Shown here: piece by piece, positions 8,925 to 64,000 of the stretch
Position numbering within the stretch: the first letter of the stretch is position 1
Layout: each line of letters opens with the position of its first letter
Notes under the pieces: model-generated
What the model saw: only the letters and a program-made list of their open reading frames with translations
What the model was told of the DNA's origin: nothing
The model's database searches: none
Position numbers and translations under genes: made by a program
Assembly: GCA_002348185.1 (NCBI GenBank)
Contig: DDYW01000181.1
Coordinates: forward strand, 77,531-141,530
DNA from: Candidatus Hydrogenedentes bacterium UBA2224
Lineage (GTDB): Bacteria; Hydrogenedentota; Hydrogenedentia; Hydrogenedentales; SLHB01
Length of the DNA: 64,000 bases
Direction: 5' to 3'

Positions 8925-9278
8925 GCTCTCTCTCTGAACCTTCGCGGGATGAACCGCCGAAGGCGGATACACGACTCAATCGGCAAAACGCCGGGATAGT
9001 AAATTTGGCAGAAAGTATAGATTGACCGGATCGGCATATCAATTCCTCCACCCAGCGCGGCGTCCGAAGACCCAATCGCGGGGCAGGCACGGGCAGGCGG
9101 AGGATGATGCCCTGGACCGCAAGTGCCCCAACGATTCACGGTGCGCTCAGCCCTCGAATCCGGCTCCAGCGTCAAGCCCATTGGAATGCCCCAACCCCTG
9201 CCGATACAATAACCCCAGCAGAAACCCCAGCAGAGACCCGCGCATGTGGGGCGGAGTCTCCCGTGCTGTGTCCTCTGG

Positions 9279-16156: not shown

Positions 16157-16169
16157 CGCGGACGGCCGC

Positions 16170-29682: not shown

Positions 29683-29763
29683 GTCGGGAATCTGTTAAAT
29701 CCCTCCTGGAACCCGCCCGCTGAAGGCGCCTGTTGCATAACAATGACCGCTGGGGGGAAGAAA

Positions 29764-31182
29764 ATGCCGCGATTCCATGGCGCTGCACGCCGATGGGGCG
29801 CCCTGGTGGGGGTGTGTTTGCTCCTGGCGCTTCTGGCCGCGGTCGACTATCACCTGAAACACGCCGGAGACGGCGCCGGGTTTCATCCTTCCGGGGCGTC
29901 GTGCGTCTTGGTGTCGTCGGACTTCCCGTCGTTCTGCGCGGAACTCGCGGATACGGACGCCGCGGCCCGCTTTCTCTCCGAGACCCCGCGCCCGTTTGAG
30001 GCCTTCGAACTCGCGGTCCGGAAAGCCACCGGCGTGCGCCCCACGCCGTTGCGCTGGGCCGTCTGGATGGGACCGCGCGTCGTGGGGGCCCGGTGGCACG
30101 GGTCCCAGGGGATCTGCGCGCATCCGGGGCTGCTTCTCCGCGCCGTGCACGCCTGGCGATTTGCGTGGGGAGCACGGCCGGACAACTTCGGGGTGTATGC
30201 CTGTGCCGGACATTTCTACGCCTGGCGCGACGGCTTTCTGCTCGTCTCATCCTCCCCGGAATACGTGAACGCCGCACTCGATTCGCCTCAGGTCGACGCG
30301 GTGCCCGAAGGCAATGACAACAGTCTGATGGTTCGATGGAACGGCGGGGACATCCGCATCCATCCCCAGCCGGGCCTCCCCGTCGACGGAACGCTGAACC
30401 TGCCCTTCCAGTCCACGGGCGAACCACTGCAGCTGGCGGACGCATGGCCCGACGACGCGCTGCTGACGTTGAGCACGTCCACGCCTGAGGACGCGCTTCT
30501 CTTCTGGAAAACCGCCGTGCGTCCCTTCGAATCTAACGCCACCTATGCCCGCTGTGCTCATCTGGTCGCGTCTCTGTGGCAGCAATGGGCGCTGGGGGCG
30601 CCCGACGAAGGCTGGACGGGCCGGATCGGCGAGTTCTCCGTCGCCGTGACCGGCGTGGACGCCCTGGCGACCGTCCCCGTACCGGCATGGGGAGTCAGAA
30701 TGCGGCCCCGAACGCAGGAAAGCGTGCAGGCCGAACATCCGTGGCTGCCCGTGCTTGCTCCGCTTGCGCCGATTGAATACGCCTGGGACGGACGCCCGGG
30801 ATGCGTCGCCACCTTGATGGGAGAACGCGCAGCGGTCTGTCTCGCGGGCGATCGCGCGACCTGGCTCGCAACGAGCCAGCCGGCCCTCATGAGCGAACTC
30901 CTGGCCATCGAAGCCCGCGAACCCCATGCCGACGCCGATGCGATGCTCACCATCCACTGGAAGACCGCCGGGAAAACGGCCGAAACGCTGCTCAAGAGGG
31001 CCGGGGAACTGGAACTCATCCCCGAGATGAATGACCAGGAAGCCGACGCCTATCTTGGCAAATACGCGCGGTCCGTAGCGCACCTCGGCCGTCTCCGGAT
31101 CATCGGCCGGGCCCGCGACGGCGTCATCGCGTTTGAGGGCACCCTGGTGGCGCCCGCAGAGGAGGGCATTGCGCAACCATGA
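29764..31182 (+). CDS. hypothetical N-terminally membrane-anchored protein
   Basis: GGGGGGAAG lies 4 nt upstream of the ATG. A single N-terminal TM helix (WGALVGVCLLLALLAAV) is followed by a roughly 440-aa Trp-rich extracytoplasmic domain. The stop overlaps the next gene start. Confidence 0.5.
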   Translation: MPRFHGAARRWGALVGVCLLLALLAAVDYHLKHAGDGAGFHPSGASCVLVSSDFPSFCAELADTDAAARFLSETPRPFEAFELAVRKATGVRPTPLRWAVWMGPRVVGARWHGSQGICAHPGLLLRAVHAWRFAWGARPDNFGVYACAGHFYAWRDGFLLVSSSPEYVNAALDSPQVDAVPEGNDNSLMVRWNGGDIRIHPQPGLPVDGTLNLPFQSTGEPLQLADAWPDDALLTLSTSTPEDALLFWKTAVRPFESNATYARCAHLVASLWQQWALGAPDEGWTGRIGEFSVAVTGVDALATVPVPAWGVRMRPRTQESVQAEHPWLPVLAPLAPIEYAWDGRPGCVATLMGERAAVCLAGDRATWLATSQPALMSELLAIEAREPHADADAMLTIHWKTAGKTAETLLKRAGELELIPEMNDQEADAYLGKYARSVAHLGRLRIIGRARDGVIAFEGTLVAPAEEGIAQP

Positions 31183-33218: not shown

Positions 33219-37054
<3,836 letters not shown>

Positions 37055-37392
37055 GACCCACTCCTCCACTTGCGTGCCTCGTGTGCACGCAGATCTAAAG
37101 CGTTGCCTTTGAATGGGTTAGGAAGCAAGGAAGGCGCCCCGTCCCCTAACGGGATTTCAATCTAGCACACCGGCCGCGCTTTTTCAATCCACAAGGTATC
37201 CCCCGAATCGCCGGGGGAAGCACAACGCTTTCGACCGGGAGATGACCCGTGAAGGCGCCGCTCCCGTCCCCCCTCCGGGTCCGGCCGAGACGCCTGCGCT
37301 GTGTTGATGGAAACGCGGTACCGCGCGGTTGTCATCGGCTACAGGCGAGGCGGCAGGCTCATGGCTTGCTGTGATGAGGGGACGCACAGACA

Positions 37393-37448: not shown

Positions 37449-38372
37449 CTACATGTTGTTTACGGCAGCCACGAAGCACGCCCACAGCCGGTGACCGGGA
37501 TATGCGTCGGCCGGGTAGCGCATGAACTCGACATGGCCGTCCATGTAAAGCACGTTGCCACCGCCGGGGACGTGGTTAAAGTTGTCGACTTCCGATGAGA
37601 AGATGTCGTAGAAGATGGGCAGTTCACTCTGGGCCTTGGCGGCTCCGGATGGGTTATTGATGTCGGTTACCATGAACCGCTCGATGCCTTCCCGAAGGCG
37701 GTACGCGGTCTTCGGGCCGACGGCGAGGTCCGCATCCATGAGCGCGGCCGCCTGCTGGACGGTCCCGCCCGTCATTGCGTTCGTGACCAGGGCGGTGATC
37801 AAGTTCACCAGACCGTTGTAGAGGTTGATGTTGAGGTAGCCGCCCGCCACCACGGTGTCCATGGTGATGCCCGCGTCGTTCACGTTGATGCCGGGGGTGG
37901 CGATCAGCTCGTCGGTGAGCGCCCAGGGGACGTAGACATACGAGAGGTCATCGAAGCGGCAGGGGGAGATGGGCAGATCCGGATCGCTCTGCTCATTCCA
38001 CCGGCCTTTGGCCATGGCGCTCTTGCCGTCTTCATCCGAGGGGCAGACGAGAATGTTGGCGTCCGTGAGGTATTCCGGGTAAATCTCACTACCCTGCATC
38101 ATGAAACCGATGCCGCCGATTTCGTTGCAAAAGATCCCGTTGGCCTCGTCTGCCGTGTTTGAGTCCGCATACTTGCCGTTGGGGAATTTCTCGCCTTTGG
38201 ATTCGTTGGCATACATCTTCAGCATGAGACCGACTTGTTTGAGGTTGTTGGCGCAGCTGGCCCTGCGGGCAGCTTCCCGTGCACGGGCAAGGGCGGGCAG
38301 GAGGATGGCTGCAAGAATGCCGATGATCGCGATTACAACCAGCAGTTCAATAAGCGTAAATCCTTTTTTCAT
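37449..38372 (-). CDS. prepilin-type N-terminal cleavage/methylation domain protein, DUF1559 (H-X9-DG) family
   Basis: The N-terminus [46 protein letters not shown] is a class III signal plus a conserved DUF1559 lead-in. The C-terminus has [17 protein letters not shown] (H-X9-DG). AAAGGGAGAAT lies 8 nt upstream of the ATG. Confidence 0.85.
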
Positions 38373-43947: not shown

Positions 43948-44262
43948 CGGGCCCCGCGCGTCAGGCTCGCACCCAGCCGCAAACGCCCGCTCAAACACGC
44001 GCTCGGCCAGGACGTTTCATGACCCGGGAGATTCCCGCACTAAGTCCATGTGGCACGCACGTTTCGCGCAGCGCGCCCTTGCCATGCGCCCGCGATTTCG
44101 GGCATACTGGCCACGGGGCGGTCATTACGCGTATGTCAGGACCGCAAGCAGCAGGAATGCACCGGGAACGTTCTCTGAGAGGCGCCCTCAAACGCGGGGC
44201 CTGCGGTGGGAAGCCGCCGTGTTGACTCTCCAGACACGGCCACGGGAGATTGGGGTGTCGCA

Positions 44263-44736
44263 ATGCAGTTAGAGACAGTACGGTTCGGGTCCCTCGAAGT
44301 GGCTCCGGATGCGGTGATCACATTCACGCAACCCATCCTGGGCTTTCAAGAGTATCGCCGTTTTGTGGTCCTCCCGGGGCCGAGCGAATATCTGTGGTGG
44401 CTTCAGTCGACGGAGTCCGGCGATCTCGCCTTCATTCTGATGGATCCCGCGGTGGTAGTTCCAGATTACCGCGTTGAAATCCGGCCTGCCGAACTCAGCG
44501 AGCTGGCCGTCGCCTCCATCGGCGAACTTGACGTCTATACACTGGTGGTCGTGCCCGAGGACAAGAGAAAAGTGCGCACCAATCTCCGGGCGCCCATTCT
44601 GATCAACCCCAAGCTGCGGCTGGCCAAACAGGCGCTCCTGGACCGCAGCGACTACCCCATTCAATTCTTCCTCGCGCAACCCCATCAGGGCCAGGGACAG
44701 GCCCGGGAGGCATCCAATGCTGGTCTTAACCCGTAA
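44263..44736 (+). CDS. fliW: flagellar assembly factor FliW (CsrA antagonist)
   Basis: [43 protein letters not shown] and AKQ are present. Length is 157 aa from the internal Met (track ORF from 44206). GGGAGATTGGGG lies upstream. Confidence 0.8.
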
Positions 44737-44938
44737 AGAGGATGAAAGCATCATGATTGGGGACGACATCGAGGTCAAAGTCCTTGATCTGAAAGAAAGC
44801 CAGGTGAAATTGGGAATCGTCGCCCCAAAGTCCGTGGCCGTGCACCGGCGGGAGGTCTATCTGGCCATCCAGAGCGAAAACACGCAGGCGGCCTCCGCGG
44901 CGCAGATCGACTCCATCACGGATCTGATTCAGCGATAA
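44717..44938 (+). CDS. csrA: carbon storage regulator CsrA
   Basis: [25 protein letters not shown]...[19 protein letters not shown] is present. Length is 73 aa with the longer C-terminal tail typical of FliW-regulated CsrAs. It overlaps fliW by 20 nt. Confidence 0.9.
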
Positions 44939-44960: not shown

Positions 44961-45587
44961 ATGGAACTCATCGTAGACGGAAGCGCCAGAGGCCTCGGAG
45001 AAGAGCCCCAGGGCAGTATCTTCGACCTGGTGGTCGCGCTCGGCAGGCAGCTTCAGGAGGACGGCCGTTCCATCATGACCGTCCGAATCGACGGAAGCGA
45101 GATCAGCGCCGGAAACCTGGTGGAATCCATGCGAGACAAGCCGGTGACAAGCGTCCGGCAGATCGTGATCACTTCGGAAGACACCCGGACGCTGGTGAAC
45201 GAGTCCCTGTCGGACATGCAGGCCTCGCTGCCCGAGCTTCCGGTGGCGTGCCAGGAACTGGCCCGAGTGTTTCAGAGCGAGACGCCGGACGCCGGCTACG
45301 AGCCGTTCCAGCAGCTTGCGGCGATATGGGGCGCCATCAAGGAGCGGGAACTGATGGTCGCGAACGCCCTCGAGATCTCGCTGGAAGAACTCCTGATCGG
45401 CGAACTCACGGTCAAACAGTTTCATGATGATCTCAATGCCTATTTGCGGGAAGCCACCGAAGCCCTCAAAAAGAGGGATTCGGTGTTGTTGGGGGACCTG
45501 CTTGAATACGAACTGGCGCCACGGGCCGAAAAAGAGAGCGCGATCGTCGCGATTCTGATGAAAGAGGCCGAACAATTTGCGGGGTAG
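44961..45587 (+). CDS. hypothetical acidic protein (208 aa), no recognisable domain
   Basis: It lies between csrA and the glycosyltransferase genes. The next gene starts 2 nt after its stop. Confidence 0.5.
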   Translation: MELIVDGSARGLGEEPQGSIFDLVVALGRQLQEDGRSIMTVRIDGSEISAGNLVESMRDKPVTSVRQIVITSEDTRTLVNESLSDMQASLPELPVACQELARVFQSETPDAGYEPFQQLAAIWGAIKERELMVANALEISLEELLIGELTVKQFHDDLNAYLREATEALKKRDSVLLGDLLEYELAPRAEKESAIVAILMKEAEQFAG

Positions 45588-45589
45588 GA

Positions 45590-48500
45590 ATGGCCGCGCC
45601 GCGCATCCTGACATTCAATTTTCATGAGCCTTACCTGTGCCTGATGGCGCGGACCGGCCTGCCCTTTGCCATCGGTGAATATGACAGCCCCCCCTTCGCG
45701 CGGAAATGGCACGAGCGCTACCGCCCCATCCCTCCGAACTTCACGTTTCTCAACGAAAACACCTGGCGACGCGACCTTGCGCAGGGCCGCTTCGACGTCG
45801 TCATCGCGCAAAACGAGATGAATGCGGCCGGCCTCTCCAAAGAGGCGCTGCTCAGCGACACCCCCCTCCTTCTGGTCTGCCACAACCGGCGCAGCTTCCT
45901 CGAAGCAACCATGAAGAATGGCCCCGACAGCCGCTACGATACGTTTCAGCGCCTCCTGGAAACGCTCCGGAGAATTGCCCGGTTTGTGTTCATCTCTGAG
46001 ACCAAACGTGATGATTACGCCATCCCGGGCATCGTCATCTGCCCCGGCATCGACGTCGAGGAATACGGCGGCTATACGGGAGAAAACCCGGGGGTGCTGC
46101 GCGTCGGCAACGCCTTGGGCCAGCGGGACGTCATGTTCGACGTCGGCTTTCAGGAACGGGTATGTGCCGGTTTTGCCAACCGCCTCGCGGGCGACAATCC
46201 GGACATCCCGGAGTCCCAGCCGGCCGCGTCCTTCGATGACCTGCGCCGGCTCTATCGCTCCTTCCGGTGCTATCTGCACGTCACCCGGGAAGCCTACGAG
46301 GACGGCTACAACCTCGCCCTGCTCGAAGCCATGGCCACAGGCATGCCGGTGGTCTCTCTCGCGAACCCGACATCTCCCCTCACGGACGGGAAAGACGGTT
46401 TTCTGTCGTACGACGCCGATGTCCTCCGGGGCCACATCGCTATGCTGCTCGATGATCTGTCCTGCGCCCGGGAGATCGGCGCTCGCGCCCGTGAAACCGT
46501 CGCGCAGGCGTTTCCCATGGCCCCCTTCGTCGAGGCCTGGCGCGAAACCATTCTGTCGGCCGCCGAACTCAGCCCCCGGCAAAGCACAAGGACCCGGACA
46601 CGCATCACGCCGCCTCCCCTGCCAACTACCGCCGTGCCCGCGACGGAGATCCTCCTTCACTACATGGCGTCGCCGGTCACCACGGGAAGATATTTTGAGT
46701 GGGCCCTGCGCAAACGCCATCACGTCGTCACCGCGGGGTTCCGGTGCCCGGAAGCGATTCTAAGCCGGTGGGGATTTCCGGGCGAACCGCCCGCGTACGG
46801 TCCCCACGACGTGGAACTCAGGCTCGAGACGCCCTACCGGGAACTCATGGGCATGCTGCCAGACGGATTTGCGCCCCGTCTGTACCTCTGGGTGGATTCC
46901 GGCCCGAAACAGGTGGCGCCCGACATCGACTGCCTGCGCATCCCGAAAGCCTGTTACCTCATCGACACGCACCTGGCCCCCGAATTGCGCATCGACATCG
47001 CCCGGCATTTCAATTTCGTGTTTCTGGCGCAGAAAGCCCAAGTGCCGCTCTTCCAGGACGCCGGCCTCGCAAACGTCTGCTGGTTGCCGCTCGCGTGTTC
47101 ACCCGAGCTGCACGACGTGGGACAACCCGAACGCATCTACGACGTGGCCTGTATCGGCCGGATTCAGGATGACCCCCACGACCGCCGCGCCAGGATTCTC
47201 GACCGCGTACGCAGCGCGTTTCCCCGGCACCGCATCGGCCAGCAATGGCCCCCGGACATGGCGCGAACGTATGCCCAGTCGAAGATCGTCGTGAACGCGG
47301 CCGTCAACAACGACCTCAACATGCGCGTATTCGAGGCGATGGCGTCGGGCGCGCTCCTCATTACTGACCGCGCGGAAGGCCTGTTGGACCTCTTCGAGGA
47401 AGGCGAACATTTCGTGCTCTACCGCGATGAGGATGAGCTGTGCCCGCTCATCGAGCGCTACCTCGCTGACCGCGAGGCGCGGGAACGCATCGCGCAGCAG
47501 GGGCGAGACCTCGTGCTTGCGCAACATACGTACGACCTGCGCATGGAGCAATTACTCGGATGCGTATTCGAAGCCGCGGGCGTGTTCGGCGGCTACCGCG
47601 GGGAATCCCGGTACCACTACGGCGGCTACTACTGCTCCCCGCGCGCGGAACTGGCGGTCCATGTCCCCCCGGGGGCGAAGCGCGTCCTCGACGTCGGGTG
47701 CGGGGGCGGCGCGTTCGGACGATCGCTGAAAGAGCGCGGCGTACAGGAGGTCGTCGGGATCGAGATTGACGAGCGCGCGTGCGCCCTCGCCAGGGAAGTG
47801 CTTGATGACGCCCTCGCCGGCAACATCGAACAGATGGAACTGCCTTTCGAACCCGGGCACTTCGATTGCGTCACGTTCGGGGATGTGCTTGAACATCTGG
47901 TTGACCCGGCGGCAACGCTGCGCAGGATTGCGCCGTTCCTCGCCCCGGAAGGCCTTGCGGTCGCCAGCATCCCCAACGCGCGTTTCTGCCAGGTGGTGCA
48001 GATGCTTGCCGAAGGCCGGTGGAAATACGAAGATGCCGGCATCCTCGACCGGACGCATCTGCGGTTCTTCACCGCGACGGAAATGCAGATGCTTTTCCAG
48101 GGGGCGGGCTACGAGATCCTGAAGATGCTGCCCCTCTCGATGCTTCAGGCGGAGCTCCTTCCTCGCAACGCTGACGGAGGTTTCACGCTCGGCAAACTGA
48201 CCGTCGGCCCCTTAAATGACGCGGAGTATCAGGATTTTCTCGTGTACCAGTACCTCGTCGTCGCACGGAGCGCCGCCGGGACGCCGCTGGAACGCGCACG
48301 GGCCGCGTTGTCCGAAGGCCGTTTCGAGGAGGCCTGCACCCTGGCCGCCTCGGCCGCGAACGCGGACCCCACCGAGCGCAAGTTCATCATCGGGCAGGCG
48401 CTGGGCCGGCTTGGAAAACTCGAGGCCGCCGAATCGGCCTTGCGCGAAGCCTGCGCGTCCAGCCCCGCCCGCGCGGACATCGTCGGGCAACTGGGGGTGC

Positions 48501-48928
48501 TGCTGGTCGCCATGAACCGAAGCGCCGAGGCCATCCCCTGTCTGGAGCAGGCCGTTGCCGCCAACCCGGGGGACCACCGCGCCCTCGGCGCCTGGGGTCT
48601 GGCCCTGCTCGCCAGCGGCAACCCCGAAGAGGCCTTCACGAAGCTCAGGGCGTCTCTGGAGATTCACTTCGATAACGCGCCGCTCATGGACTCCTTTGCC
48701 GCCCTCGGCGAAACGCTGGAACGATGGTCGGATATGGAGCCGGTGCTTCGCCGGTTTGTGGAGTTTTACCCCGCAAACACCGCCATGTCGCTGCGCCTTG
48801 CCCGCATTCTGGCCCGGCTGGGAAAAACCGGCGAGGCGCGCGAGCGCTTGGAAACCGTGCTCTTGTTCGACACCGGTAACGCAGACGCGCGTCAGTTGCT
48901 TGAAGAAATTTCGTCCGGGGGCGCATAA
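45590..48928 (+). CDS. multidomain enzyme: GT4 glycosyltransferase + CgeB-like glycosyltransferase (Glyco_trans_1_2) + class I SAM methyltransferase + C-terminal TPR repeats
   Basis: GT4 has EDGYNLALLEAMATGMPVV. The CgeB-like domain has NMRVFEAMASGALLITD...LYRDEDEL...AQHTYDLRMEQLL. The SAM-binding motif is VLDVGCGGGAFG with post-I FDCVTFGDVLEHLVDP. The tail is TPR-like Ala/Leu repeats. It is one 1112-aa ORF. Confidence 0.8.
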   Translation: MAAPRILTFNFHEPYLCLMARTGLPFAIGEYDSPPFARKWHERYRPIPPNFTFLNENTWRRDLAQGRFDVVIAQNEMNAAGLSKEALLSDTPLLLVCHNRRSFLEATMKNGPDSRYDTFQRLLETLRRIARFVFISETKRDDYAIPGIVICPGIDVEEYGGYTGENPGVLRVGNALGQRDVMFDVGFQERVCAGFANRLAGDNPDIPESQPAASFDDLRRLYRSFRCYLHVTREAYEDGYNLALLEAMATGMPVVSLANPTSPLTDGKDGFLSYDADVLRGHIAMLLDDLSCAREIGARARETVAQAFPMAPFVEAWRETILSAAELSPRQSTRTRTRITPPPLPTTAVPATEILLHYMASPVTTGRYFEWALRKRHHVVTAGFRCPEAILSRWGFPGEPPAYGPHDVELRLETPYRELMGMLPDGFAPRLYLWVDSGPKQVAPDIDCLRIPKACYLIDTHLAPELRIDIARHFNFVFLAQKAQVPLFQDAGLANVCWLPLACSPELHDVGQPERIYDVACIGRIQDDPHDRRARILDRVRSAFPRHRIGQQWPPDMARTYAQSKIVVNAAVNNDLNMRVFEAMASGALLITDRAEGLLDLFEEGEHFVLYRDEDELCPLIERYLADREARERIAQQGRDLVLAQHTYDLRMEQLLGCVFEAAGVFGGYRGESRYHYGGYYCSPRAELAVHVPPGAKRVLDVGCGGGAFGRSLKERGVQEVVGIEIDERACALAREVLDDALAGNIEQMELPFEPGHFDCVTFGDVLEHLVDPAATLRRIAPFLAPEGLAVASIPNARFCQVVQMLAEGRWKYEDAGILDRTHLRFFTATEMQMLFQGAGYEILKMLPLSMLQAELLPRNADGGFTLGKLTVGPLNDAEYQDFLVYQYLVVARSAAGTPLERARAALSEGRFEEACTLAASAANADPTERKFIIGQALGRLGKLEAAESALREACASSPARADIVGQLGVLLVAMNRSAEAIPCLEQAVAANPGDHRALGAWGLALLASGNPEEAFTKLRASLEIHFDNAPLMDSFAALGETLERWSDMEPVLRRFVEFYPANTAMSLRLARILARLGKTGEARERLETVLLFDTGNADARQLLEEISSGGA

Positions 48929-48977: not shown

Positions 48978-50762
48978 ATGATGAAGCCCGCACGAGAATG
49001 GATGGCGGAACTCGCGGAGGTCGTGCCGCCCCCGGATGTGTGCCTGGAGGAGGGGCGCGAAGGCGAACCGACCCTGCGTATTGGCACTGCCTATCTCCAC
49101 AGCCGCTACAAACCCCGCGAAGAAGCCAAACGCCTGCTCGACTCCGCGGAGCTGGACCCCGACCGTCCGGTGCTTGTCGTCGGCGTGGGTCTGGGTTATC
49201 ACATCCTGGAGCTTCTCGACCGCGGATACCGCGTTGCCGTGGCCGAACCCGACCGCGCCATTGCCGCCCTGGCGGTGGGGGGACTTCTGCGTGATCGCGA
49301 GGTTCTGCTGGGCATAGGCGAGCCGGACGCGATCGCCGCCTCTCCCTTCTTCCAGCGCTTCGTCCGCGATACCCCGCAGGTATTCGTGCATCCTCCGTCC
49401 GCCCGCATCCAACCGGCATTCGCGGAAGCGATGACGGCCCGGGTATCGCGTGCCGCGCTGCTCGGACAGCGCCTGAGAATCGCCGTCGTGGGCCCGATGT
49501 TCGGCGGGTCCCTGCCCATTGCCGGACATCTGGTCCGCGCGTTCCAGAAGCTGGGCCATCAGACCGTCTATGCCGACAACAGCCTGGCCTGGAACCTCTA
49601 CGAGACCATGAGTGCTTCGGTGAAATCGCGCAAGGCCGCCCATCAACTGGGCGAACTCCTCGTCCATTTTCTGGGGGAATGGTCGTATGCCCGGGTCATG
49701 GAATTCGCGCCCGACATCTGCGTGGTCATGGCGCAGGCCCCGGTCTCGCCCCAGTTCCCGCTTCGACTGGCCCCCGAGGGCATCGTCACGGCGTTCTGGT
49801 ATGTCGAGAACTGGCGGCACCTGCCGTATTGGAAAGAGCTTGCGCCACACTACGACTTCTTCTTCCACATCCAGCCCGGCGCCTTCGAGACCCAGCTCCG
49901 CGAGGCGGGATGCCAATATCAGGCCTGTGTACTGACGGGCTGCGACCCGGAGGTGCACCGCCCCGTAACCCTGGAAGACGCGGAACGCGACGAGTTCGCC
50001 TGCGACGTTTCCTTCGCGGGAGCGGGTTACATGAACCGGAACCAGGTGCTGGCCGGCCTCACGGACTATGCCCTGAAAATCTGGGGCGTGAACTGGGCCC
50101 ATCCCTCCCTCCGGCCCGTCCTTCAACGCCCAAACGAGCGATTCACGCCTGAATTGTTCGCGAAAATCGTCGCAGGCTCGAAGGTCAACCTGAACCTGCA
50201 TTCGAGCACGAGTTTCCCGGGCGTGGATCCCCATTGCGACGCGATTAACCCCCGCGTGTTCGAGATCGCCGCCTGCGGAGGGTTCCAGCTCTGCGACCCG
50301 TGCACAGGGCTTGACGCCTGCTTTGATTTCGCCACCGAGTTGCCCGTCTACACGTCGCTGAAGGAGTTACGGGACAAAATCGACTATTATCTCGCCCATT
50401 CCGCCGAACGCGCACAGATCGCCGCGGCTGCCCGCGCTCGCGCACTCCGCGACCACACCTACGAAAAACGCGCCGCGCAGATGCTCGAGCGGATACTCGA
50501 TGCGTTCGGCGCGCGCATTCTTCGGAAAGGCATCCGGGTGCAGCGCACGGTCGCCGAGATCAAAGACCGCTGCGCAGAGGATGCCGCCCTGGCGGCCTTC
50601 CTCGATACCCTGCCGTCCGATGCGCTGTTCGACCACGAAACCGTAAATGCGCACCTGCCCACGGCCATGATGGCCCACAACCGGGCCGAAGGGCTGTTCG
50701 CTTACTTGAGGGAGTTGCGCAACTCAGCCGAAGCGCTTCTCCAACTGCGGGACACGGAGTGA
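48978..50762 (+). CDS. Maf-like (DUF115 / MptE-like) protein fused to CgeB-like glycosyltransferase domain
   Basis: The N-terminus has YLHSRYKPREEAKRLL...VLVVGVGLGYHILELLD, which I recognise as the motility-accessory-factor/DUF115 pattern. The C-terminus has NPRVFEIAACGGFQLCD...DHTYEKRAAQMLE, the Glyco_trans_1_2 pattern. The domain calls are from memory, not from a search. Confidence 0.6.
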   Translation: MMKPAREWMAELAEVVPPPDVCLEEGREGEPTLRIGTAYLHSRYKPREEAKRLLDSAELDPDRPVLVVGVGLGYHILELLDRGYRVAVAEPDRAIAALAVGGLLRDREVLLGIGEPDAIAASPFFQRFVRDTPQVFVHPPSARIQPAFAEAMTARVSRAALLGQRLRIAVVGPMFGGSLPIAGHLVRAFQKLGHQTVYADNSLAWNLYETMSASVKSRKAAHQLGELLVHFLGEWSYARVMEFAPDICVVMAQAPVSPQFPLRLAPEGIVTAFWYVENWRHLPYWKELAPHYDFFFHIQPGAFETQLREAGCQYQACVLTGCDPEVHRPVTLEDAERDEFACDVSFAGAGYMNRNQVLAGLTDYALKIWGVNWAHPSLRPVLQRPNERFTPELFAKIVAGSKVNLNLHSSTSFPGVDPHCDAINPRVFEIAACGGFQLCDPCTGLDACFDFATELPVYTSLKELRDKIDYYLAHSAERAQIAAAARARALRDHTYEKRAAQMLERILDAFGARILRKGIRVQRTVAEIKDRCAEDAALAAFLDTLPSDALFDHETVNAHLPTAMMAHNRAEGLFAYLRELRNSAEALLQLRDTE

Positions 50763-50766
50763 CGGC

Positions 50767-52461
50767 ATGCGTATCCTGGTAGCCCAGATGACCCGCATGG
50801 GAGACATGCTGCAGAATTCCACCCTGACCCGCGCGTTGCGCCAGCGCTACCCTGACGCCCACATCACCGCGATGGTGCGGCCCCTGGCGCGCGGTATCGC
50901 TGAACGCAATCCCGACATCGACGACATCATCCTGTACGAGGAAGACGCGATGTTCTGCGATTTGCGCAGCCGCGATTCGGACCGCTTGCTCCGCGCCTAC
51001 CGGAGCGCCGCCGCGCTGGTCGACGACCTGAACGCGCGCCGGTTCGACGTCGTCTACAACTGCACGCTCAGTATCGCTTCGGCCATGTTGCTGAAACTGG
51101 TCCGCGTCCCGCGGACCATCGGGGCGCATCTCAGTGACGACTGGCGTTTCGTGCTTCGTGGACGCTGGACCAACTACTTCTTCACCAGCGTGTATCAGCG
51201 CGCGTACAGCGACATCAACATCAGCGATGTCTTCCGCAATCTCATGGAGGACGCGCCGCCCGTCTCCGGGCTCAGTCTGGCCATCACGGACGATGACCGC
51301 CGCGAGGCGCGGGAGATTCTCGCCAGGCATGGCGTCCGCGAGCGGGATTTCGTGGTCTGCATGCAACTCGGGGCCAGCGACACGTCCAAGCGCTGGCCCG
51401 TTGCCCAGTTCGCGGAACTGGCGCGCCGCCTGGCCGCTGAGAAGAACGCGAGAATCTGCCTGCTGGGCGTGGAATCCGAAGCCCCGCTGGGAGACGCCTT
51501 CGAGACCCAGGCGCCGGGGCTCGGCATTCACCTTTTTGGCAAGACCACCATTCCGCAACTGGCCGCCCTCCTCGAGTCCGCGCGCGTGCTGGTCACCAAC
51601 GATACGGGCACCATGCATGTTGCCGCGGCCGTGCGCTGTCCGATTCTCCTGCTGTCGGTGGGATACGTTCATTTTCGCGAGACCGGCCCCTACGGCGAAG
51701 GCCATCTGGCGCTCGAACGCCGGAAAGACTACCTCGCCCCCATGAACAAAGACGAGACGTCCGCCGACGAGCGCGGCGCCATCCCCCCCGGACCCGTGAC
51801 GGACCTGCTCGAACTGCTGCTCGCTCCCTCCCCGGAGGGGTGCATCCCTTCCCTGCCCGACTCGCCCGAGTGGGCCAGCCTCGACGTCTATCAGTCCCGG
51901 TTTGCCCCGGACGGCTTTCTCGAGTGGTATCCGGTGATTCGCCGTCCCATGACCGAGACCGATTTCCTGCGTGTCGCGTACCGCAACACCTGGATCGCCC
52001 ATCTCTGCCCCTCCGTTTCCCGCGAGACGCTTCTCGACGGGATTCGGCGGGTCGCGGCCTGTTTTGCGCCGGACGGCACGGCCGCGCTCGAGGGTTGGCA
52101 TCAACACTGGAGCGCGGTCTTCCGCCAACTGGAACAGCTCGCACGGCAGGGAAGCCAGAAGACGGAACAACTCAGGGCCTGCCTCCGCCACGGCAGGAAC
52201 ATCGCCACCGCCCGGGAGATTGTGGGCGAGCTCATGCGGCTGGATGAAGACACGCGCCTCTTCGCGGAGTTGAACGGGGGATGCCGCCCGCTGATCAGCA
52301 TCGCGCGTTTCCAGCGCGACAATCTCGAGGGGGCCGACCCGATGCCGCTTGCGGAAATGACGCAGGAGATCTACCGGGAACTTTCCGAGCGCGCCGCGCT
52401 GATGCGGGCGCACTTCGACGCCATCCGCGTCGCCATGCATGCCGTGGACACGGAGACCTAG
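50767..52461 (+). CDS. GT9-like glycosyltransferase (heptosyltransferase family) with about 230-aa C-terminal extension
   Basis: The N-terminus is MRILVAQMTRMGDMLQNSTLTRALRQRYPDAHI. The later GKRWP and VTNDTGTMHVAAA motifs are typical of GT9. The start is 4 nt after the Maf-like stop. Confidence 0.7.
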   Translation: MRILVAQMTRMGDMLQNSTLTRALRQRYPDAHITAMVRPLARGIAERNPDIDDIILYEEDAMFCDLRSRDSDRLLRAYRSAAALVDDLNARRFDVVYNCTLSIASAMLLKLVRVPRTIGAHLSDDWRFVLRGRWTNYFFTSVYQRAYSDINISDVFRNLMEDAPPVSGLSLAITDDDRREAREILARHGVRERDFVVCMQLGASDTSKRWPVAQFAELARRLAAEKNARICLLGVESEAPLGDAFETQAPGLGIHLFGKTTIPQLAALLESARVLVTNDTGTMHVAAAVRCPILLLSVGYVHFRETGPYGEGHLALERRKDYLAPMNKDETSADERGAIPPGPVTDLLELLLAPSPEGCIPSLPDSPEWASLDVYQSRFAPDGFLEWYPVIRRPMTETDFLRVAYRNTWIAHLCPSVSRETLLDGIRRVAACFAPDGTAALEGWHQHWSAVFRQLEQLARQGSQKTEQLRACLRHGRNIATAREIVGELMRLDEDTRLFAELNGGCRPLISIARFQRDNLEGADPMPLAEMTQEIYRELSERAALMRAHFDAIRVAMHAVDTET

Positions 52462-57793: not shown

Positions 57794-59146
57794 TTATGCT
57801 TTACCGATTTCGCTGCGGTGCGCCCAGACCTTCTCGAACGCCTTGATATACTGATCGACGAGTTCCGGAACCTCCTTCGTGAAATACGGCAACGCGATGC
57901 TCGTCGCATTGGCCTGGTCGGAACCCGGCAGCTCCGGAATGACCGGCTTGTGGTGCCACCACTCATCTTCGGCATACAGCGGCAGCTTGTGTTGAAGCGT
58001 ATAGCTCAACGCGCTGGCGCTCACGCCTTCGGCCTTCAACGCGTTTACCGCGGCGTCGCGCGACATCCCTGCTTCCGCCTCGTCGATGAACAGCATGTTC
58101 CACGAATAGTAAAGGCGCTGCACATCGCTGCGGCCGCTCGACTGCTCGTAGAGGCCCGGAAGCTGCGTCAACACATCGTTGAGCCGTCGCGTCTGACGTG
58201 CGCCGGCCGCGTTGCGCTCTTCGAGACCCCGCAACTGGCAGCGCCCGAGCTCGGCCGCGAAGGGGTGCATCCGGAACTTCATGCCGAACCCCGAACCCTT
58301 GTACTTGAAAACCGGGCTGTCGGAAGAAATCCCGGGCATTTCGTAATTGCCGAACGCGGTCGCCCGTTCAAAATCCTCTTTGTTCTGGTACATGCCCATG
58401 CCGCCTTCGATCGCCGGCAGCGGCTTGCTCATCTGGAAGCTGTAGATGGACATGCGGCCCCAGGTCCCCACGTACTTGTCCTTCAGCTTCGCGCAGTGCG
58501 CGTGCGCGGAGTCTTCAAGCACGATCAAACCCTTCTCCTCGGCCCATTCGCAGATCAGGTCCATGTCGCTCGGGAGTCCGATCCAGTGGACCGGCAACAC
58601 CGCTTTCGTGTTCGGGGTAAGGCGCTTCTTGGCATCCTCCAGGTCAAAATTGAGCGTGCGCGGATTGATGTCCACGAATACCGGCACCAGCCCGAAGAAG
58701 CGCATCGGCGTGATCGTCGCAAAAAACGTGTAGCTGGGCACGAGGATTTCGCTGCCCGGCGGCAGGTTCAGCGCGAAGAACATCGAGGCTAGCGCGCTCG
58801 TGCCGTTGAAATGCGCCTTGGCGTGCGGCATTCCGAACTGCGCACACCATTCTTCTTCAAACTTCGTGACGGGGTCGTAACTGGGGTGGCGGATCAGTTC
58901 AAGAATCGCCTGCTCTTCCGTTTCGCCATACAGAGGCCACTTTGCCGCATCGCCGAATTCGGTCGTGACTGCTTTCGGACCGCCGTTCATGGCAAGGGTT
59001 TCGACCGCCCCGCTGGCGCGCCGTTGACCGGCCATCGCGATTCCCGCGGCTGCGGCAGCGCCCGTGGTCTTCAGAAACGCACGCCGGGACGGCTGCGCAT
59101 TCGTCTGGTTCGCTCTCTGGTCCATCGCCAATTCCTCCGTTTTCAT
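57794..59146 (-). CDS. DegT/DnrJ/EryC1/StrS-family PLP aminotransferase with twin-arginine (TAT) signal
   Basis: The TAT motif is SRRAFLKTTGAAAAAGIAMA. The fold is DegT-like (SGTSAL-type region FNGTSALASMF, SFQMSKPL with the Lys). Length is 450 aa. Confidence 0.85.
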   Translation of the reverse strand: MKTEELAMDQRANQTNAQPSRRAFLKTTGAAAAAGIAMAGQRRASGAVETLAMNGGPKAVTTEFGDAAKWPLYGETEEQAILELIRHPSYDPVTKFEEEWCAQFGMPHAKAHFNGTSALASMFFALNLPPGSEILVPSYTFFATITPMRFFGLVPVFVDINPRTLNFDLEDAKKRLTPNTKAVLPVHWIGLPSDMDLICEWAEEKGLIVLEDSAHAHCAKLKDKYVGTWGRMSIYSFQMSKPLPAIEGGMGMYQNKEDFERATAFGNYEMPGISSDSPVFKYKGSGFGMKFRMHPFAAELGRCQLRGLEERNAAGARQTRRLNDVLTQLPGLYEQSSGRSDVQRLYYSWNMLFIDEAEAGMSRDAAVNALKAEGVSASALSYTLQHKLPLYAEDEWWHHKPVIPELPGSDQANATSIALPYFTKEVPELVDQYIKAFEKVWAHRSEIGKA

Positions 59147-59911: not shown

Positions 59912-60934
59912 TCACGGCGAATACTGGTACCCGTCGCTGAGAATCTCTTGCGTGCAGCAATACAGCCAGGAACCGGTCGGCTGCGGATACCGCGCCCATT
60001 CGACGTGGCCATCCATGCACAGCACATTGGCGCCGCCCGGAACATGGCAGAAGTCCTTGCCGCCTTCCGAGATGCCGCCGGCGGGACCCGATGTGCGGAT
60101 CGTGTCCCACATGGCGATGATCTGGGATTGCGCGCGGCTGCTGCTCGCCGGGTTGTTGATGTCGGTGATGAAGAACCGTTCAATGCCTTCACGCAGATGG
60201 TACAGCGTGACGGTCCGGCCATCGGAAGGCAGCGTAATGCTGCCGTCCTGGTAGGCCATCATCCAGCAGCCCATGCCGGACGCACTGGGCGTGCCGCTGT
60301 TGTATCCGTTGTGCAGGTACGTGAAGACGGCAGCACAATCTACCTGCGTCTCCAGCGCATCCGGTGGAATGGCCACCGCCCAGTAGGCATACGACCAGTC
60401 GGGCAGGTACGGATAGCAGGTCGTCGGCGTGCAATCGGTCCCCACAACCGGGTACGGCAGATTGGACACAGGATTGGGCTGCATCACCCGCAAATCCCAG
60501 TTGTCGCCGACCTGCCGCCACACCCCGTTGGTGGGTTGCCCGGCCGGCTTGTCGTAGGGCCATTCGCTCGATTCGGGCCAATACTTCCCCGGTCCGGAAT
60601 CCACATCCGAGGGACAGAACCAGATGGCGAGATCCGTCGCATATTCAGGATACAGTTCCGGCACGTTCAACCCGTGCCACACCCGGACATTGTCGCCATT
60701 GATCGCTTCGGTAGGTGTGTTATCGTAGCGCACCGTCCGGCATACCCACTGGTCGCGGTGTTCGGCGGCAAACATCTTGTGAATCAGCCCGAACTGCTTC
60801 AGATTGTTCTGGCAACTCGCCCGCCGCGCCGCCTCTCTCGCGCGGGAAAGCGCCGGCAAGAGAATGGCCGCGAGTATGCCGATGATGGCAATGACCACCA
60901 GCAGTTCAATTAACGTAAACCCATGCCGTTTCAT
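59912..60934 (-). CDS. prepilin-type N-terminal cleavage/methylation domain protein, DUF1559 family (paralog 2)
   Basis: [47 protein letters not shown] is present. The C-terminus has [17 protein letters not shown]. Confidence 0.85.
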
Positions 60935-61387: not shown

Positions 61388-62791
61388 ATGTTTTCCAGAC
61401 GGATATCCGCGGTGTTTTCCTATCTGGCGGCGGTTCTGTGCATTGGCATGTGGGGCTGGGGGGCGTTTGCATCGGAATCCCAGGCCGAGACCGGATGGCG
61501 TGCAGGCGTTGGCCGGGCGGACATCACGCCTCAGGAACCGATCTGGCTTGCGGGCTATGCGTCACGCGACCACGCCGCCGAAGGCACACTCCATCCCCTG
61601 TGGGTCAAGGCCCTGGCGCTCGAGGATGCCTCAGGCCAGCGCGCGGTCCTGGTCACGACCGACCTGGTCGGCCTTCCTCGCGACATCACCGGGACGGTGC
61701 TCGCCCGCATTGAAGCCGCGCACGGTCTGGCGGGCAGCCACGTCATCCTCTGCAGTTCCCACACCCACACCGGCCCGGTCACGGACAACATGCTCTACGA
61801 GATGTATCCGCTCGAGGCCGGGGACAAGGCCCGCATCGAAGAATACTCCACGGGCCTTGTCGACCGGATCCTCAGCGCCGTGGATGGGGCCCTTGCTGAA
61901 CTGGTTCCCGTTACCCTGGAGTCGGGCAACGGCGTCACGCGCTTTGCGGTAAACCGGCGCAACAATGTCGAGGCCCAGATCACGGCAACGCACAATTTCA
62001 ACGGCCCGGTGGACCATTCGGTGCCGGTGCTTCGGGTGTCGAGACCCGACGGCGCGGTGCTGGCCGTCGTGTTCGGATACGCCTGCCATGCCACGACCCT
62101 GGACCTCTACCAGTGGTCGGGAGACTACCCCGGTTTTGCCCAGATCGAGCTCGAAAAGGCGCATCCGGGCGCCACCGCCATGTTCTTCGCAGGATGCGGC
62201 GCGGATCAGAATCCCCTGCCCCGCCGCACCGTCGAACGGGCAGTCCAGTACGGGCGTGAACTCGCGGTAGCGGTGGACCGTGTGCTCGCCGAGCCCATGA
62301 AGCCGCTGGCCCCCGCGTTCAGCGCCCAGTACACCGAGGTGGAACTTGCGCTGGCGCCCGCCCCCAGCCGCGACGAACTGGCCGCGCAGACCGTGAACGC
62401 CCCCGGATACCGGGCGCGGTGCCTGAACCGGCTCATTGAAACACTCGACGCGGGCCAGCCTCTCCCCTCCTCCTATTCGTATCCGATTCAGCTCTGGCGG
62501 CTGGGCGATCAGGCCCTGGTGGCGCTGGCGGGCGAAGTGGTGGTCGACTATTCGATCTTCCTGAAACGCATGCTGGGGAACGACACGTTCGTCATGGCCT
62601 ATGCCCACCACATCCCCAGTTACATCCCGTCGGAGCGGGTGCTTGCGGAAGGGGGTTACGAAGGCGCCGACTCACAGCTCTACTATGGCTTTGCGGGGCC
62701 GTGGGCGAGCGGCCTGGAGGAACGCATCCTGAACGGCGCCACGCAAGCCGCCACCGCGCTGGGCTTCACGGTGGCGCCCTGGAAAGAGTAG
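61388..62791 (+). CDS. neutral/alkaline non-lysosomal ceramidase-like hydrolase, secreted
   Basis: There is a signal peptide. The Zn-site-like motif is LCSSHTHTGP, with GYA..D and GYACHAT regions. Length is 467 aa. Confidence 0.6.
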   Translation: MFSRRISAVFSYLAAVLCIGMWGWGAFASESQAETGWRAGVGRADITPQEPIWLAGYASRDHAAEGTLHPLWVKALALEDASGQRAVLVTTDLVGLPRDITGTVLARIEAAHGLAGSHVILCSSHTHTGPVTDNMLYEMYPLEAGDKARIEEYSTGLVDRILSAVDGALAELVPVTLESGNGVTRFAVNRRNNVEAQITATHNFNGPVDHSVPVLRVSRPDGAVLAVVFGYACHATTLDLYQWSGDYPGFAQIELEKAHPGATAMFFAGCGADQNPLPRRTVERAVQYGRELAVAVDRVLAEPMKPLAPAFSAQYTEVELALAPAPSRDELAAQTVNAPGYRARCLNRLIETLDAGQPLPSSYSYPIQLWRLGDQALVALAGEVVVDYSIFLKRMLGNDTFVMAYAHHIPSYIPSERVLAEGGYEGADSQLYYGFAGPWASGLEERILNGATQAATALGFTVAPWKE

Positions 62792-62831: not shown

Positions 62832-64000
62832 TTACGCGAGCAGTTGCCGGATGGCTTCGCGGAACGCGCCCTCCGAGTCCGGCCGGAGGAGGGATGCCGT
62901 GGGCTCGTAGCCCCCCTCGTCGTACGCGGAAGCCGTGCAGATGTACCCGGGCGCACAGTCGCCATAGCCCGAGACCGCCACAAATTCGGTGGCGCGCTGT
63001 TCTTTGGCGAAAAGCTGATATTCGACCATCGGTTCACCCGGCAGGTGGGCAATGTGCACGTTGCCCATGTGCAGCGCGCTCACCTCGATCGGCCGCGCGC
63101 TGCGGACGCGGTAGGCCAGACTCATCGCGCCGCCCGTGCGCACGCTGTCCGGCTTCTTGACGTCGGCCATCTGCGCCCGGCTGTCCGCTTCCGTATACCC
63201 GGGGTCCTCGCGCACGCTCAACGGAAATGCCGCCGTGGTCCAGGTGATGCCCGACACCGGCGCGAGAACGGGGGCGGCGCACGAGGCCTTCATCGCGGCA
63301 TAAATGCGCTCATAGAGTCCCTGCCGCGCCTCGGGCGTCCCGTCGTTGTATTTCCCCGCGGCGACGTTGCCCGCACACCCGGTGAAGTAGACCTGGAACG
63401 CGCCTTCTTCCTGTTCGAGACGCTCACGGGCCATCCCGACGAAATCGTAACTGGCACGGGGATCGCCATAAAAACTCTGGGGGTGCGTCGCATAGTAATG
63501 CAGCCTCGTCACGGGATGGCCATCCCTCACAAATGTGATGGTCTGCAGCATCGGATCGATCAGGCCCTCGGGCATCGCCCGAACCTTCTCGTCGCGGCAC
63601 GAACTCCCCCGGAAACCCACCTTGCCTTCGCCCACGGGGACTCGGCGGTTCGAAGCGACCTGCTCGACCTTGGCCTGGCTTGTGCCAATCGCGTCGACCG
63701 GCACAAAGTTCCCCATGGCGCCCCGGACCGCCTCGCCGAGGGTCGCCGCGGCCGCCTCAAACACTTCGTTGGACGGATACGCCGGCGGCGGATTGACGCT
63801 ATCGATAAACGGGCGCGCATCCGCGTCGCCCATGGGCGCGGTGTGTTGATGGACGGTCTGCACGGCCACGTGCGAAACGCTGGTATCCGCGCTTTGCGCC
63901 ACGGCCTGCCGGAAGGCGTCATAGGTCGAATTGCGCAGTTCGCACCAGTCCACGGCGCACAACACATACCGGTCGTCGCCCTCCTCGATAACCACGCCTT
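62832..64000 (-). CDS. neutral ceramidase-like paralog (C-terminal about 390 aa; N-terminus beyond window end)
   Basis: VQTVHQHTAPMG and YFTGCAGN have the same arrangement as the upstream paralog. The ORF is open to the window edge. Confidence 0.5.
   Translation of the reverse strand, partial: GVVIEEGDDRYVLCAVDWCELRNSTYDAFRQAVAQSADTSVSHVAVQTVHQHTAPMGDADARPFIDSVNPPPAYPSNEVFEAAAATLGEAVRGAMGNFVPVDAIGTSQAKVEQVASNRRVPVGEGKVGFRGSSCRDEKVRAMPEGLIDPMLQTITFVRDGHPVTRLHYYATHPQSFYGDPRASYDFVGMARERLEQEEGAFQVYFTGCAGNVAAGKYNDGTPEARQGLYERIYAAMKASCAAPVLAPVSGITWTTAAFPLSVREDPGYTEADSRAQMADVKKPDSVRTGGAMSLAYRVRSARPIEVSALHMGNVHIAHLPGEPMVEYQLFAKEQRATEFVAVSGYGDCAPGYICTASAYDEGGYEPTASLLRPDSEGAFREAIRQLLA

Follow-up and report, generated by a model that had tools for sequence, protein, structure and literature searches.

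A Maf N-terminal domain joined to a CgeB-like GT-B glycosyltransferase in a conserved fliW-csrA gene cluster of Hydrogenedentota

Two kinds of glycosyltransferase (GT) that modify flagellin have been described, Maf and FlmG (10.1101/2022.03.25.485807; PMC11339370; PMC9290775). Both act in the cytoplasm (10.1101/2022.03.25.485807), and in FlmG the tetratricopeptide repeat (TPR) domains mediate binding to flagellin (PMC7591256). Which part of Maf recognises flagellin, and what its methyltransferase-like N-terminal domain does, are explicitly open questions (10.1101/2022.03.25.485807; PMC11339370; PMC9290775). Published work gives this domain four parallel strands in a degenerate Rossmann-like fold, along with weak methyltransferase-like motifs, and assigns it no function (PMC11339370). 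Here we analyzed a 64,000-nucleotide (nt) stretch of a contig (DDYW01000181.1) from Candidatus Hydrogenedentes bacterium UBA2224, hereafter called the window, and focused on the gene at 48978-50762 (+), hereafter called the target. Its product carries a homologue of the Maf N-terminal domain in front of a CgeB-like GT of the GT-B fold, and it lies in a conserved cluster with fliW and csrA. Because this operon contains genes that control flagellin, the architecture, so far undescribed, is probably a variant of flagellar protein glycosylation.

The target encodes 594 amino acids (aa) from ATG to stop, and its codon-position GC content (0.70/0.45/0.78) is like that of the rest of the window genes, while the minus-strand open reading frames (ORFs) overlapping it do not have coding-like values. 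The motif strings quoted in the initial annotation of this DNA (YLHSRYKPREEAKRLL, VLVVGVGLGYHILELLD, NPRVFEIAACGGFQLCD and DHTYEKR) were all found in the translation. On their basis, the target had been described as a Maf domain of the DUF115/MptE-like type fused to a CgeB-like GT, and domain searches and folds both support that an N-terminal module derived from Maf is joined to a CgeB-like (PF13524) glycosyltransferase. The N-terminal part is, however, a homologue of the non-catalytic domain Maf_N (PF20157), and the DUF115/MptE-like catalytic domain, PF01973, is absent. No NCBIfam model matches the target. No hydrophobic segment was found in any of four proteins of the cluster, and the target is a soluble protein.

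Residues 1-165 of the target (48978..49472, +), examined with an AlphaFold2 (AF2) model, Foldseek and hhalign, are truly homologous to the domain described by PF20157, the non-catalytic N-terminal part of Maf. They form a beta-hairpin followed by a four-stranded parallel Rossmann-like sheet (strands at 65-68, 86-90, 110-113 and 134-137 in the model), and carry the motifs LHSRYxPxEEA, GxGLGYH, EP and HPPS. PF20157 (Glycosyltransferase Maf N-terminal domain) was the sole Pfam signal in this part, and although the query alone gave E 0.18, with profile positions 114-132 aligned to VLVVGVGLGYH, 24 of the 55 family members matched the profile (best 1.3e-5). The family alignment of this domain was compared by hhalign with the first 200 aa of seven Maf proteins (P0134, P0138, P0146, P0153, P0161, P0177 and P0142) and matched at Prob 99.93 and E 3.4e-36 over 147 columns; in these proteins PF01973 is located at about 200-380, and the match to the domain profile precedes it. 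The AF2 model of aa 1-165 alone had a predicted local distance difference test score (pLDDT) of 95.3, and its best fold match in the PDB was the Maf protein of Magnetospirillum magneticum, 5MU5 (Foldseek E 1.1e-5, TMq 0.64). The modelled fold agrees with that published for the Maf N-terminal domain (PMC11339370).

The same searches gave no sign of the catalytic domain of Maf. PF01973, whose absence the initial annotation had named as refuting the Maf assignment, was found neither in the full-length protein (E<=0.01) nor in its first 181 or 274 residues scanned separately (E<=10), and none of the 55 family members matched it at E<=1, while bona fide Maf proteins scanned likewise gave 1e-37 to 1e-44. 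The strings LHSxYxPxxEA and GxGLGYH, which are easily taken for the mark of a nonulosonate-transferring domain, therefore identify Maf_N and not DUF115, and must not serve to predict sialic-acid-like glycosylation.

The likeness of the domain to methyltransferases raises the question of whether it is an active S-adenosylmethionine (SAM)-dependent methyltransferase, the target being then a bifunctional enzyme that methylates, for example, flagellin lysines or the transferred sugar. When the PDB is searched with the profile of the target family, class I methyltransferases come up, those of the KsgA/Dim1 type at E 2e-5 (aa 50-151) and others at up to E 1e-4, and many such enzymes rank after 5MU5 in the Foldseek list. 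In the alignment with KsgA/Dim1, VLVVGLGLGYH pairs with VLEVGPGLGF (motif I) and VAVVEPD with VYTIEID (acidic residue ending strand 2). Within the target family, G69 and G73 do not vary and G71 and E90 are nearly invariant, and the GxGxG of motif I and E90 are near-invariant in Maf and stand-alone Maf_N proteins as well. In Aeromonas and Shewanella, Maf-glycosylated flagellins are also lysine-methylated, and the resemblance of Maf to methyltransferases has been noted (PMC9290775, PMC11339370). However, the model does not show the seven-stranded sheet of class I methyltransferases, because the fold ends after the fourth parallel strand and strands 5-7 are missing, in line with the description of the Maf domain as degenerate (PMC11339370). 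Furthermore, the asparagine of the KsgA motif IV, NxPY, is not conserved in the family alignment, and the neighboring gene already encodes a complete methyltransferase domain. Methylation by the target itself is thus unlikely.

The profile of this domain, run against 1.84 billion representatives, retrieved 3405 proteins at a cut-off of E<=1e-3, of which 520 also passed E<=1e-10. Among a sample of 66 long matches from outside the target family, PF20157 was found in 57, PF01973, which marks true Maf proteins, in 45, PF13524 in 17, GT9 in 3, and GT4 and GT2 in 1 each, and among 54 short matches (about 210 aa), 22 had PF20157 and essentially no other domain. Individual proteins include a Maf_N-GT9 fusion (P0137, 757 aa), a protein with two Maf_N-like copies followed by an MptE-like domain (P0127, 792 aa) and a stand-alone Maf_N protein of 240 aa encoded within a related module (L084, 2327-3049). 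The residues H41, S42, P46, E49, G69, G71, G73, Y74, H75, E90, H138, P139 and S/T141 are invariant or nearly so in the target family, Maf and stand-alone Maf_N proteins alike, and this strict conservation across enzymes of differing donor and fold suggests a ligand pocket, made up of methyltransferase motif I and the acidic end of strand 2.

The catalytic part of the target is a GT-B glycosyltransferase at aa 166-504 (49473..50489, +), as judged from Pfam, AF2 and Foldseek, and here the initial annotation was accurate. PF13524 (Glyco_trans_1_2) matches the C-lobe at aa 359-504 with E 1.2e-33 and 116.6 bits, against a cut-off of 25, and DUF3880 (PF12996) matches the N-lobe at aa 273-351 weakly (2.4e-4, 21.7 bits against a cut-off of 25.2); all 55 family members matched both, DUF3880 at E<=1 with a best value of 5.3e-9. 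The full-length AF2 model built from 55 homologues (pLDDT 92.4, predicted template modelling score 0.87) shows residues about 166-510 as a complete two-lobe GT-B of the GT4-like type, occupying the place of the sialyltransferase-like domain of Maf. The invariant C-lobe motif of the target is NPRVFEIAACGGFQxCD, in which N424-P425-R426-V427 are invariant and F428-E429 nearly invariant in the 55 homologues (E429 in at least 90%), and the GT-B core, with this acidic FE-motif residue in a C-lobe helix, is intact. The structural neighbors of this part are retaining GT4/GT5 enzymes that use nucleoside diphosphate (NDP)-sugars, at E about 1e-9 (6kih, 6tvp, 3mbo, 3c4q and others), and include sucrose-phosphate synthase, GlgM, BshA, MshA, TreT, PimB' and glycogen synthase. 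The remaining C-terminal tail (aa 505-594 and stop codon, 50490..50762, +) is helical, with helices at 495-593 according to DSSP on the AF2 model, and had no Pfam match. When plasmids were searched with the target by tblastn, the matches were confined to CgeB-like catalytic domains, encoded by plasmids of Bacillus and by two polysaccharide loci of alphaproteobacteria, and none of these matches had a Maf_N domain or a flagellar context.

These features bear directly on the function first proposed for the target, namely that it acts as a Maf-type factor that moves pseudaminic (Pse) or legionaminic (Leg) acid from a cytidine monophosphate (CMP) donor to flagellin or to the DUF1559 pilin-like proteins of the window. 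The homology of its N-terminal domain to that of Maf and the flagellin-related context described below fit such a role, as does the finding that the GT-B enzyme FlmG transfers Pse or Leg (10.1101/2022.03.25.485807). A DegT aminotransferase gene directly upstream of fliW in about five species also fits an amino-sugar donor, although it is not specific for one. However, the prediction had hung on PF01973, the domain resembling sialyltransferases to which the nonulosonate donor specificity of Maf is ascribed, and this domain is absent. Moreover, no sialyl- or 3-deoxy-D-manno-octulosonate (Kdo)-transferase was found among the top 50 structural neighbors of the catalytic part, which resembles NDP-sugar enzymes. 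A Pfam sweep of the window found no NeuB/PseI, SAF domain, PseB or NeuC, and tblastn of E. coli K1 NeuB, NeuA and NeuC against the window and 85 related loci (1.35 Mb) found nothing but the KdsB of the window, and hence no further CMP-nonulosonate synthetase. This KdsB, the sole cytidylyltransferase in the window (36275-37069, -; PF02348), is 44% identical to E. coli KdsB and lies next to a gene at 34651-36282 (-) that we take, from its N-terminal sequence, to be pyrG (CTP synthase); the pair (34651-37069, -) represents ordinary Kdo activation for lipopolysaccharide (LPS) and not a nonulosonate pathway. The DUF1559 proteins, which had been called abundant, are encoded by just two prepilin-type genes (N_methyl and SBP_bac_10) in the window, at 37449-38372 (-) and 59912-60934 (-). 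In none of the annotated contexts does the conserved cluster include a DUF1559 gene; the only one seen close to it, in locus L005, lies on the other strand, about 1.7 kb upstream of fliW. The cluster enzymes, in turn, are cytoplasmic and have no membrane segments. The DUF1559 proteins were rejected as acceptors for lack of linkage. Taken together, the underlying observation of the initial annotation was real, its key functional inference was mis-assigned, and transfer of a nonulosonic acid by the target is very unlikely.

The target is the fifth of six same-strand genes with gaps of no more than 49 nt, in the order fliW, csrA, DUF8042, a gene for a 1112-aa GT/methyltransferase/TPR protein, target and GT9, followed by a convergent recN. 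The first gene, at 44206..44736 (+), matches PF02623 at E 7.8e-33, although its true start may lie downstream of 44206, since orthologues are about 156-158 aa. FliW is a flagellar assembly factor and a flagellin-binding antagonist of CsrA. The csrA gene (73 aa; 44717..44938, +) overlaps the end of fliW by 20 nt, and its product has the long C-terminal tail that is typical of FliW-regulated CsrA; orthologues carry PF02599, and csrA was found by tblastn in 56 loci. The DUF8042 protein (208 aa; 44961..45587, +), whose orthologues are annotated as PF26154, has the invariant C-terminal motif LLGDLLEYELAPRAE. Its family accompanies the target/GT9 pair in several distant lineages, and for this family neither searches of PDB sequences, with a single sequence or with a profile, nor a Pfam scan of 20 of its proteins rose above noise.

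The fourth gene (45590..48928, +) encodes a multidomain enzyme in which Pfam identified a GT4-like domain at about aa 1-330 (45590-46579, +; Glyco_trans_1_4, 2.9e-16), a second CgeB-like GT at about aa 340-670 (46610-47599, +; PF13524, 2.5e-41), a class I SAM methyltransferase at about aa 675-860 (47615-48169, +; Methyltransf_23, 1e-24) and TPR repeats at about aa 880-1112 (48230-48925, +; TPR_19, 3.7e-14). Its size varies from the 1112 aa of the window to 773 aa in L004 (7683-10004), with CgeB-like, methyltransferase and TPR parts, and to 452 aa with the methyltransferase and TPR alone in L006 (7088-8446) and L023. This indicates that the methyltransferase-TPR part is the constant core of the protein and that its GT parts are dispensable in some lineages. 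The last gene (50767..52461, +) encodes a long GT9-family glycosyltransferase of 564 aa (PF01075, 6.8e-24), in which a heptosyltransferase-like GT-B at aa 1-322 is followed by about 240 aa of helical extension without any match. Its PDB matches are 3tov (9.8e-20) and WaaF 1psw (2.3e-14), and its scores are below all equivalog cut-offs of the LPS heptosyltransferase models (e.g., 93 bits vs 134.6), TIGR02195 among them.

This arrangement is widely kept in Hydrogenedentota. The top 120 homologues of the target are full-length (about 590 aa) and 55-92% identical, and those with organism names are mostly Candidatus Hydrogenedentes. A planctomycetal origin of the lineage was rejected on the strength of these names and of the genome labels given next. 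A locus scan with one genome per GTDB species gave 72 loci, mostly from metagenome-assembled genomes (MAGs) of Hydrogenedentota, including Ca. Hydrogenedens terephthalaticus, and two complete Hydrogenedentota chromosomes (OY782877.1 and OW818658.1) carry the cluster. When species-level loci with at least 5.9 kb upstream were considered, fliW with csrA, DUF8042 and the methyltransferase gene were located upstream of the target in 44 of 46, and the GT9 gene was directly 3' of the target in all 60 loci with at least 1.8 kb downstream. The same gene order was kept in contexts with unrelated flanks. About 20 cluster contigs are labelled Nitrospirales or Nitrospiraceae, single ones Bathyarchaeia and FCB group, and a few 'uncultured bacterium' (oddly labelled contigs include L009, L012, L015, L016, L019 and L029); the labels other than Hydrogenedentota are probably taxonomic mislabels or binning errors. 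A FliA candidate in L029 proved to be an extracytoplasmic function (ECF) sigma factor, followed by an anti-sigma/von Willebrand factor A protein. In L004, a CheW-receiver (CheV-like) gene at 15893-16804, 2.4 kb downstream of GT9, is the sole chemotaxis-type gene seen near the cluster.

At less than 50% identity, the architecture of the target was found in MAGs named Latescibacterota and Acidobacteriota and in metagenome contigs. The Maf_N-GT-B and long GT9 pair persists in all of these distant modules, while the other genes vary. The order is DUF8042, target-like, GT9 and lipid A acyltransferase in the Acidobacteriota-type loci L080/L081, and GT9, TPR protein and target-like in the Latescibacterota locus L083. 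L084 contains a fliS fragment, a 128-aa ORF, a methyltransferase/TPR protein, a stand-alone Maf_N, GT9, target-like and a second GT9, the fliS (PF02561, E 6e-19) being located at the contig start, upstream and on the same strand. Two tandem target-like/GT9 pairs and a DUF8042-family protein are encoded in both L087 (6675-13572) and L088 (8317-15322), and the DUF8042-family gene is followed by that of FliT in the former (30.7 bits, above the cut-off) and by that of a FlgN-like protein in the latter (28.2 bits). The gene after the tandem pairs belongs to the DUF8042/DUF8043/TP0873_N family, and hhalign of these proteins from L087 and L088 with the DUF8042 alignment gave Prob 98; when homologues of the L088 copy were sought, no more than 24 proteins came up, all of them close and unnamed. 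Across lineages, the module thus accompanies four proteins that handle the flagellar filament, FliW, FliS, FliT and a FlgN-like protein. We found no paper that mentions PF20157, DUF8042, TP0873 or the Maf_N-GT-B architecture.

With somewhat better than even confidence, we propose that the target is a soluble cytoplasmic protein glycosyltransferase, composed of Maf_N and a GT4-like/CgeB-like GT-B, that belongs to a module decorating a flagellar filament protein from an NDP-sugar donor. Its domain identities and folds, the homology to Maf_N and the conservation of the neighborhood are observed; the acceptor, the donor and the division of labor among the module proteins we infer as follows. The module, comprising the Maf_N-GT-B enzyme, an obligate long GT9 transferase, the methyltransferase-TPR protein and DUF8042, would act in the cytoplasm and glycosylate a filament protein, most likely flagellin, ahead of its export, and in Hydrogenedentota it would be co-transcribed with the fliW-csrA switch of flagellin synthesis. 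Rather than a CMP-nonulosonate, the GT-B C-lobe would most likely bind an NDP-sugar as donor. Further sugars might be added by the GT9 partner and by the optional GT domains, which would extend or diversify the glycan, and the methyltransferase might modify glycan or protein. Maf_N could be either an acceptor-targeting part or a regulatory part that binds a small ligand, and the TPR part, perhaps with Maf_N, may recognise the acceptor as TPR does in FlmG (PMC7591256).

Several points weigh against this proposal. Flagellin, fliD and fliS were absent within 10 kb of the cluster in 72 Hydrogenedentota species, and a few species (L028/L082, L030) retain the target-GT9 pair alone, elsewhere in the genome and with no fliW nearby. 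Flagellin as target, already suggested in the initial annotation, is plausible through the fliW/csrA and fliS/fliT/flgN-like neighbors, which that annotation had not used, but it is not backed by a flagellin gene within that distance. GT9 is classically an LPS family, and the Acidobacteriota-type module adjoins the lipid A acyltransferase gene. The literature that we found on flagella of Hydrogenedentes/Hydrogenedentota is silent or indirect, the GT-B domain of FlmG can use CMP-pseudaminic or CMP-legionaminic acid (10.1101/2022.03.25.485807), and the functional steps rest on association and not on experiment.

Because no flagellin gene was seen within 10 kb and the literature on flagella is silent or indirect, the alternative stays that the module builds a glycoconjugate of the cell envelope, such as LPS core, a lipid A decoration or another glycolipid or polysaccharide, and that its link to fliW-csrA is purely regulatory. 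The membership of the partner in GT9, the LPS heptosyltransferase family, is consistent with this, as are the Lip_A_acyltrans gene after the module in L080/L081, a PagL gene upstream in L004, and the common use of CgeB-like/GT4 enzymes in polysaccharide synthesis, the plasmid matches in polysaccharide loci included. However, the GT9 partner falls far short of the equivalog cut-offs for LPS heptosyltransferases and has an extra domain of about 240 aa, and the conserved cluster has no flippase, polymerase or export gene. A protein acceptor is what the TPR modules and Maf_N suggest, and fliS, fliT and flgN-like neighbors occur in three independent distant modules. We consider synthesis of an envelope glycan fairly unlikely on these grounds.

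Glycosylation of a filament protein, the reading that we prefer, can be extended to a more general proposal, to which we give somewhat less than even chances. Maf_N would be a portable module found on at least five GT folds (MAF_flag10, CgeB-like GT-B, GT9, GT4 and GT2) and also as a stand-alone protein of about 210 aa, and its conserved HS..P..EA/GxGxGYH/EP/HPxS pocket would recognise flagellin or a nucleotide-like ligand; Maf_N-GT-B with GT9 and DUF8042 would then be a third class of flagellin glycosylation in several uncultured phyla, built into a FliW-CsrA checkpoint operon in Hydrogenedentota. The target family keeps the Maf N-terminal domain and swaps the catalytic engine, and relatives use GT9, GT4, GT2 or none. 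Since the same Maf_N occurs on differing engines, its role is directly testable: a domain that targets flagellin is expected to bind it on any engine, and a domain for a small ligand should reveal this in its invariant pocket. In addition, DUF8042 and the long GT9 proteins, both of them families without annotation, gain a functional context in the handling of the flagellar filament.

The window contains further genes of note. A DegT/DnrJ/EryC1-family aminotransferase at 57794-59146 (-) has an N-terminal extension with SRRAFL that resembles a twin-arginine export signal, which is unusual for this cytoplasmic family. An HDOD/HD-domain protein and a GGDEF diguanylate cyclase, encoded at 23335-25679 (-) with a 4-nt overlap and with trkA-trkH directly downstream on the same strand, may form a cyclic di-GMP signalling pair. 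Two convergent genes, at 61388-62791 (+) and 62832-63995 (-), both encode a neutral/alkaline ceramidase N-terminal domain (PF04734), a family that is uncommon in bacteria. Four coding-like ORFs of 1163, 847, 479 and 480 aa, at 5481-8972 (-), 9246-11789 (+), 29743-31182 (+) and 33219-34661 (-), respectively, had no Pfam match at E<=1e-4.

Comparison with known systems places the target between several of them. With Maf (M. magneticum 5MU5, Aeromonas caviae Maf1 and Campylobacter jejuni Maf) it shares the homologous N-terminal domain, and both are soluble cytoplasmic enzymes; with fliW and csrA in its operon, the target also seems to share the setting of Maf among genes for flagellin handling. 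However, the GT-A-like PF01973 domain that defines Maf and is thought to bind CMP-nonulosonates is replaced by a GT-B, the target has an obligate GT9 partner and no nonulosonate genes nearby, and, its defining domain being absent, the target is not a Maf. With FlmG of Caulobacter crescentus and Brevundimonas subvibrioides it shares the layout of a non-catalytic N-terminal module and a C-terminal GT-B, which for FlmG the papers describe only as 'GT-B superfamily'; no paper linking FlmG and CgeB was found. FlmG has its TPR on the same polypeptide, whereas the target has no TPR match, its N-terminal module is Maf_N, and TPR is found in the upstream 1112-aa protein; for the Pse or Leg that FlmG transfers, no pathway was seen around the target cluster. 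Without TPR on its polypeptide, the target is not FlmG.

Databases name homologues of the target 'spore maturation protein CgeB', and its catalytic region does have PF13524, a DUF3880 match below the cut-off and the GT-B fold of CgeB/YkvP, which act in spore-crust maturation of Bacillus subtilis. The target differs from these in the 165-aa Maf_N, the helical tail and the fliW-csrA context, and we know of no sporulation in Hydrogenedentota; 'CgeB' is thus a family label for the target and not a function. Similarly, the partner shares the GT9 GT-B core with the heptosyltransferases WaaC/WaaF and differs from them in its length of about 560 aa, its unmatched extension of about 240 aa and its scores below the equivalog cut-offs. 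Heptosyltransferases of the TibC/AAH type glycosylate autotransporter proteins. Overall, the target would work most like a bipartite flagellin glycosyltransferase, in which a targeting or regulatory N-terminal module is combined with an exchangeable catalytic module.

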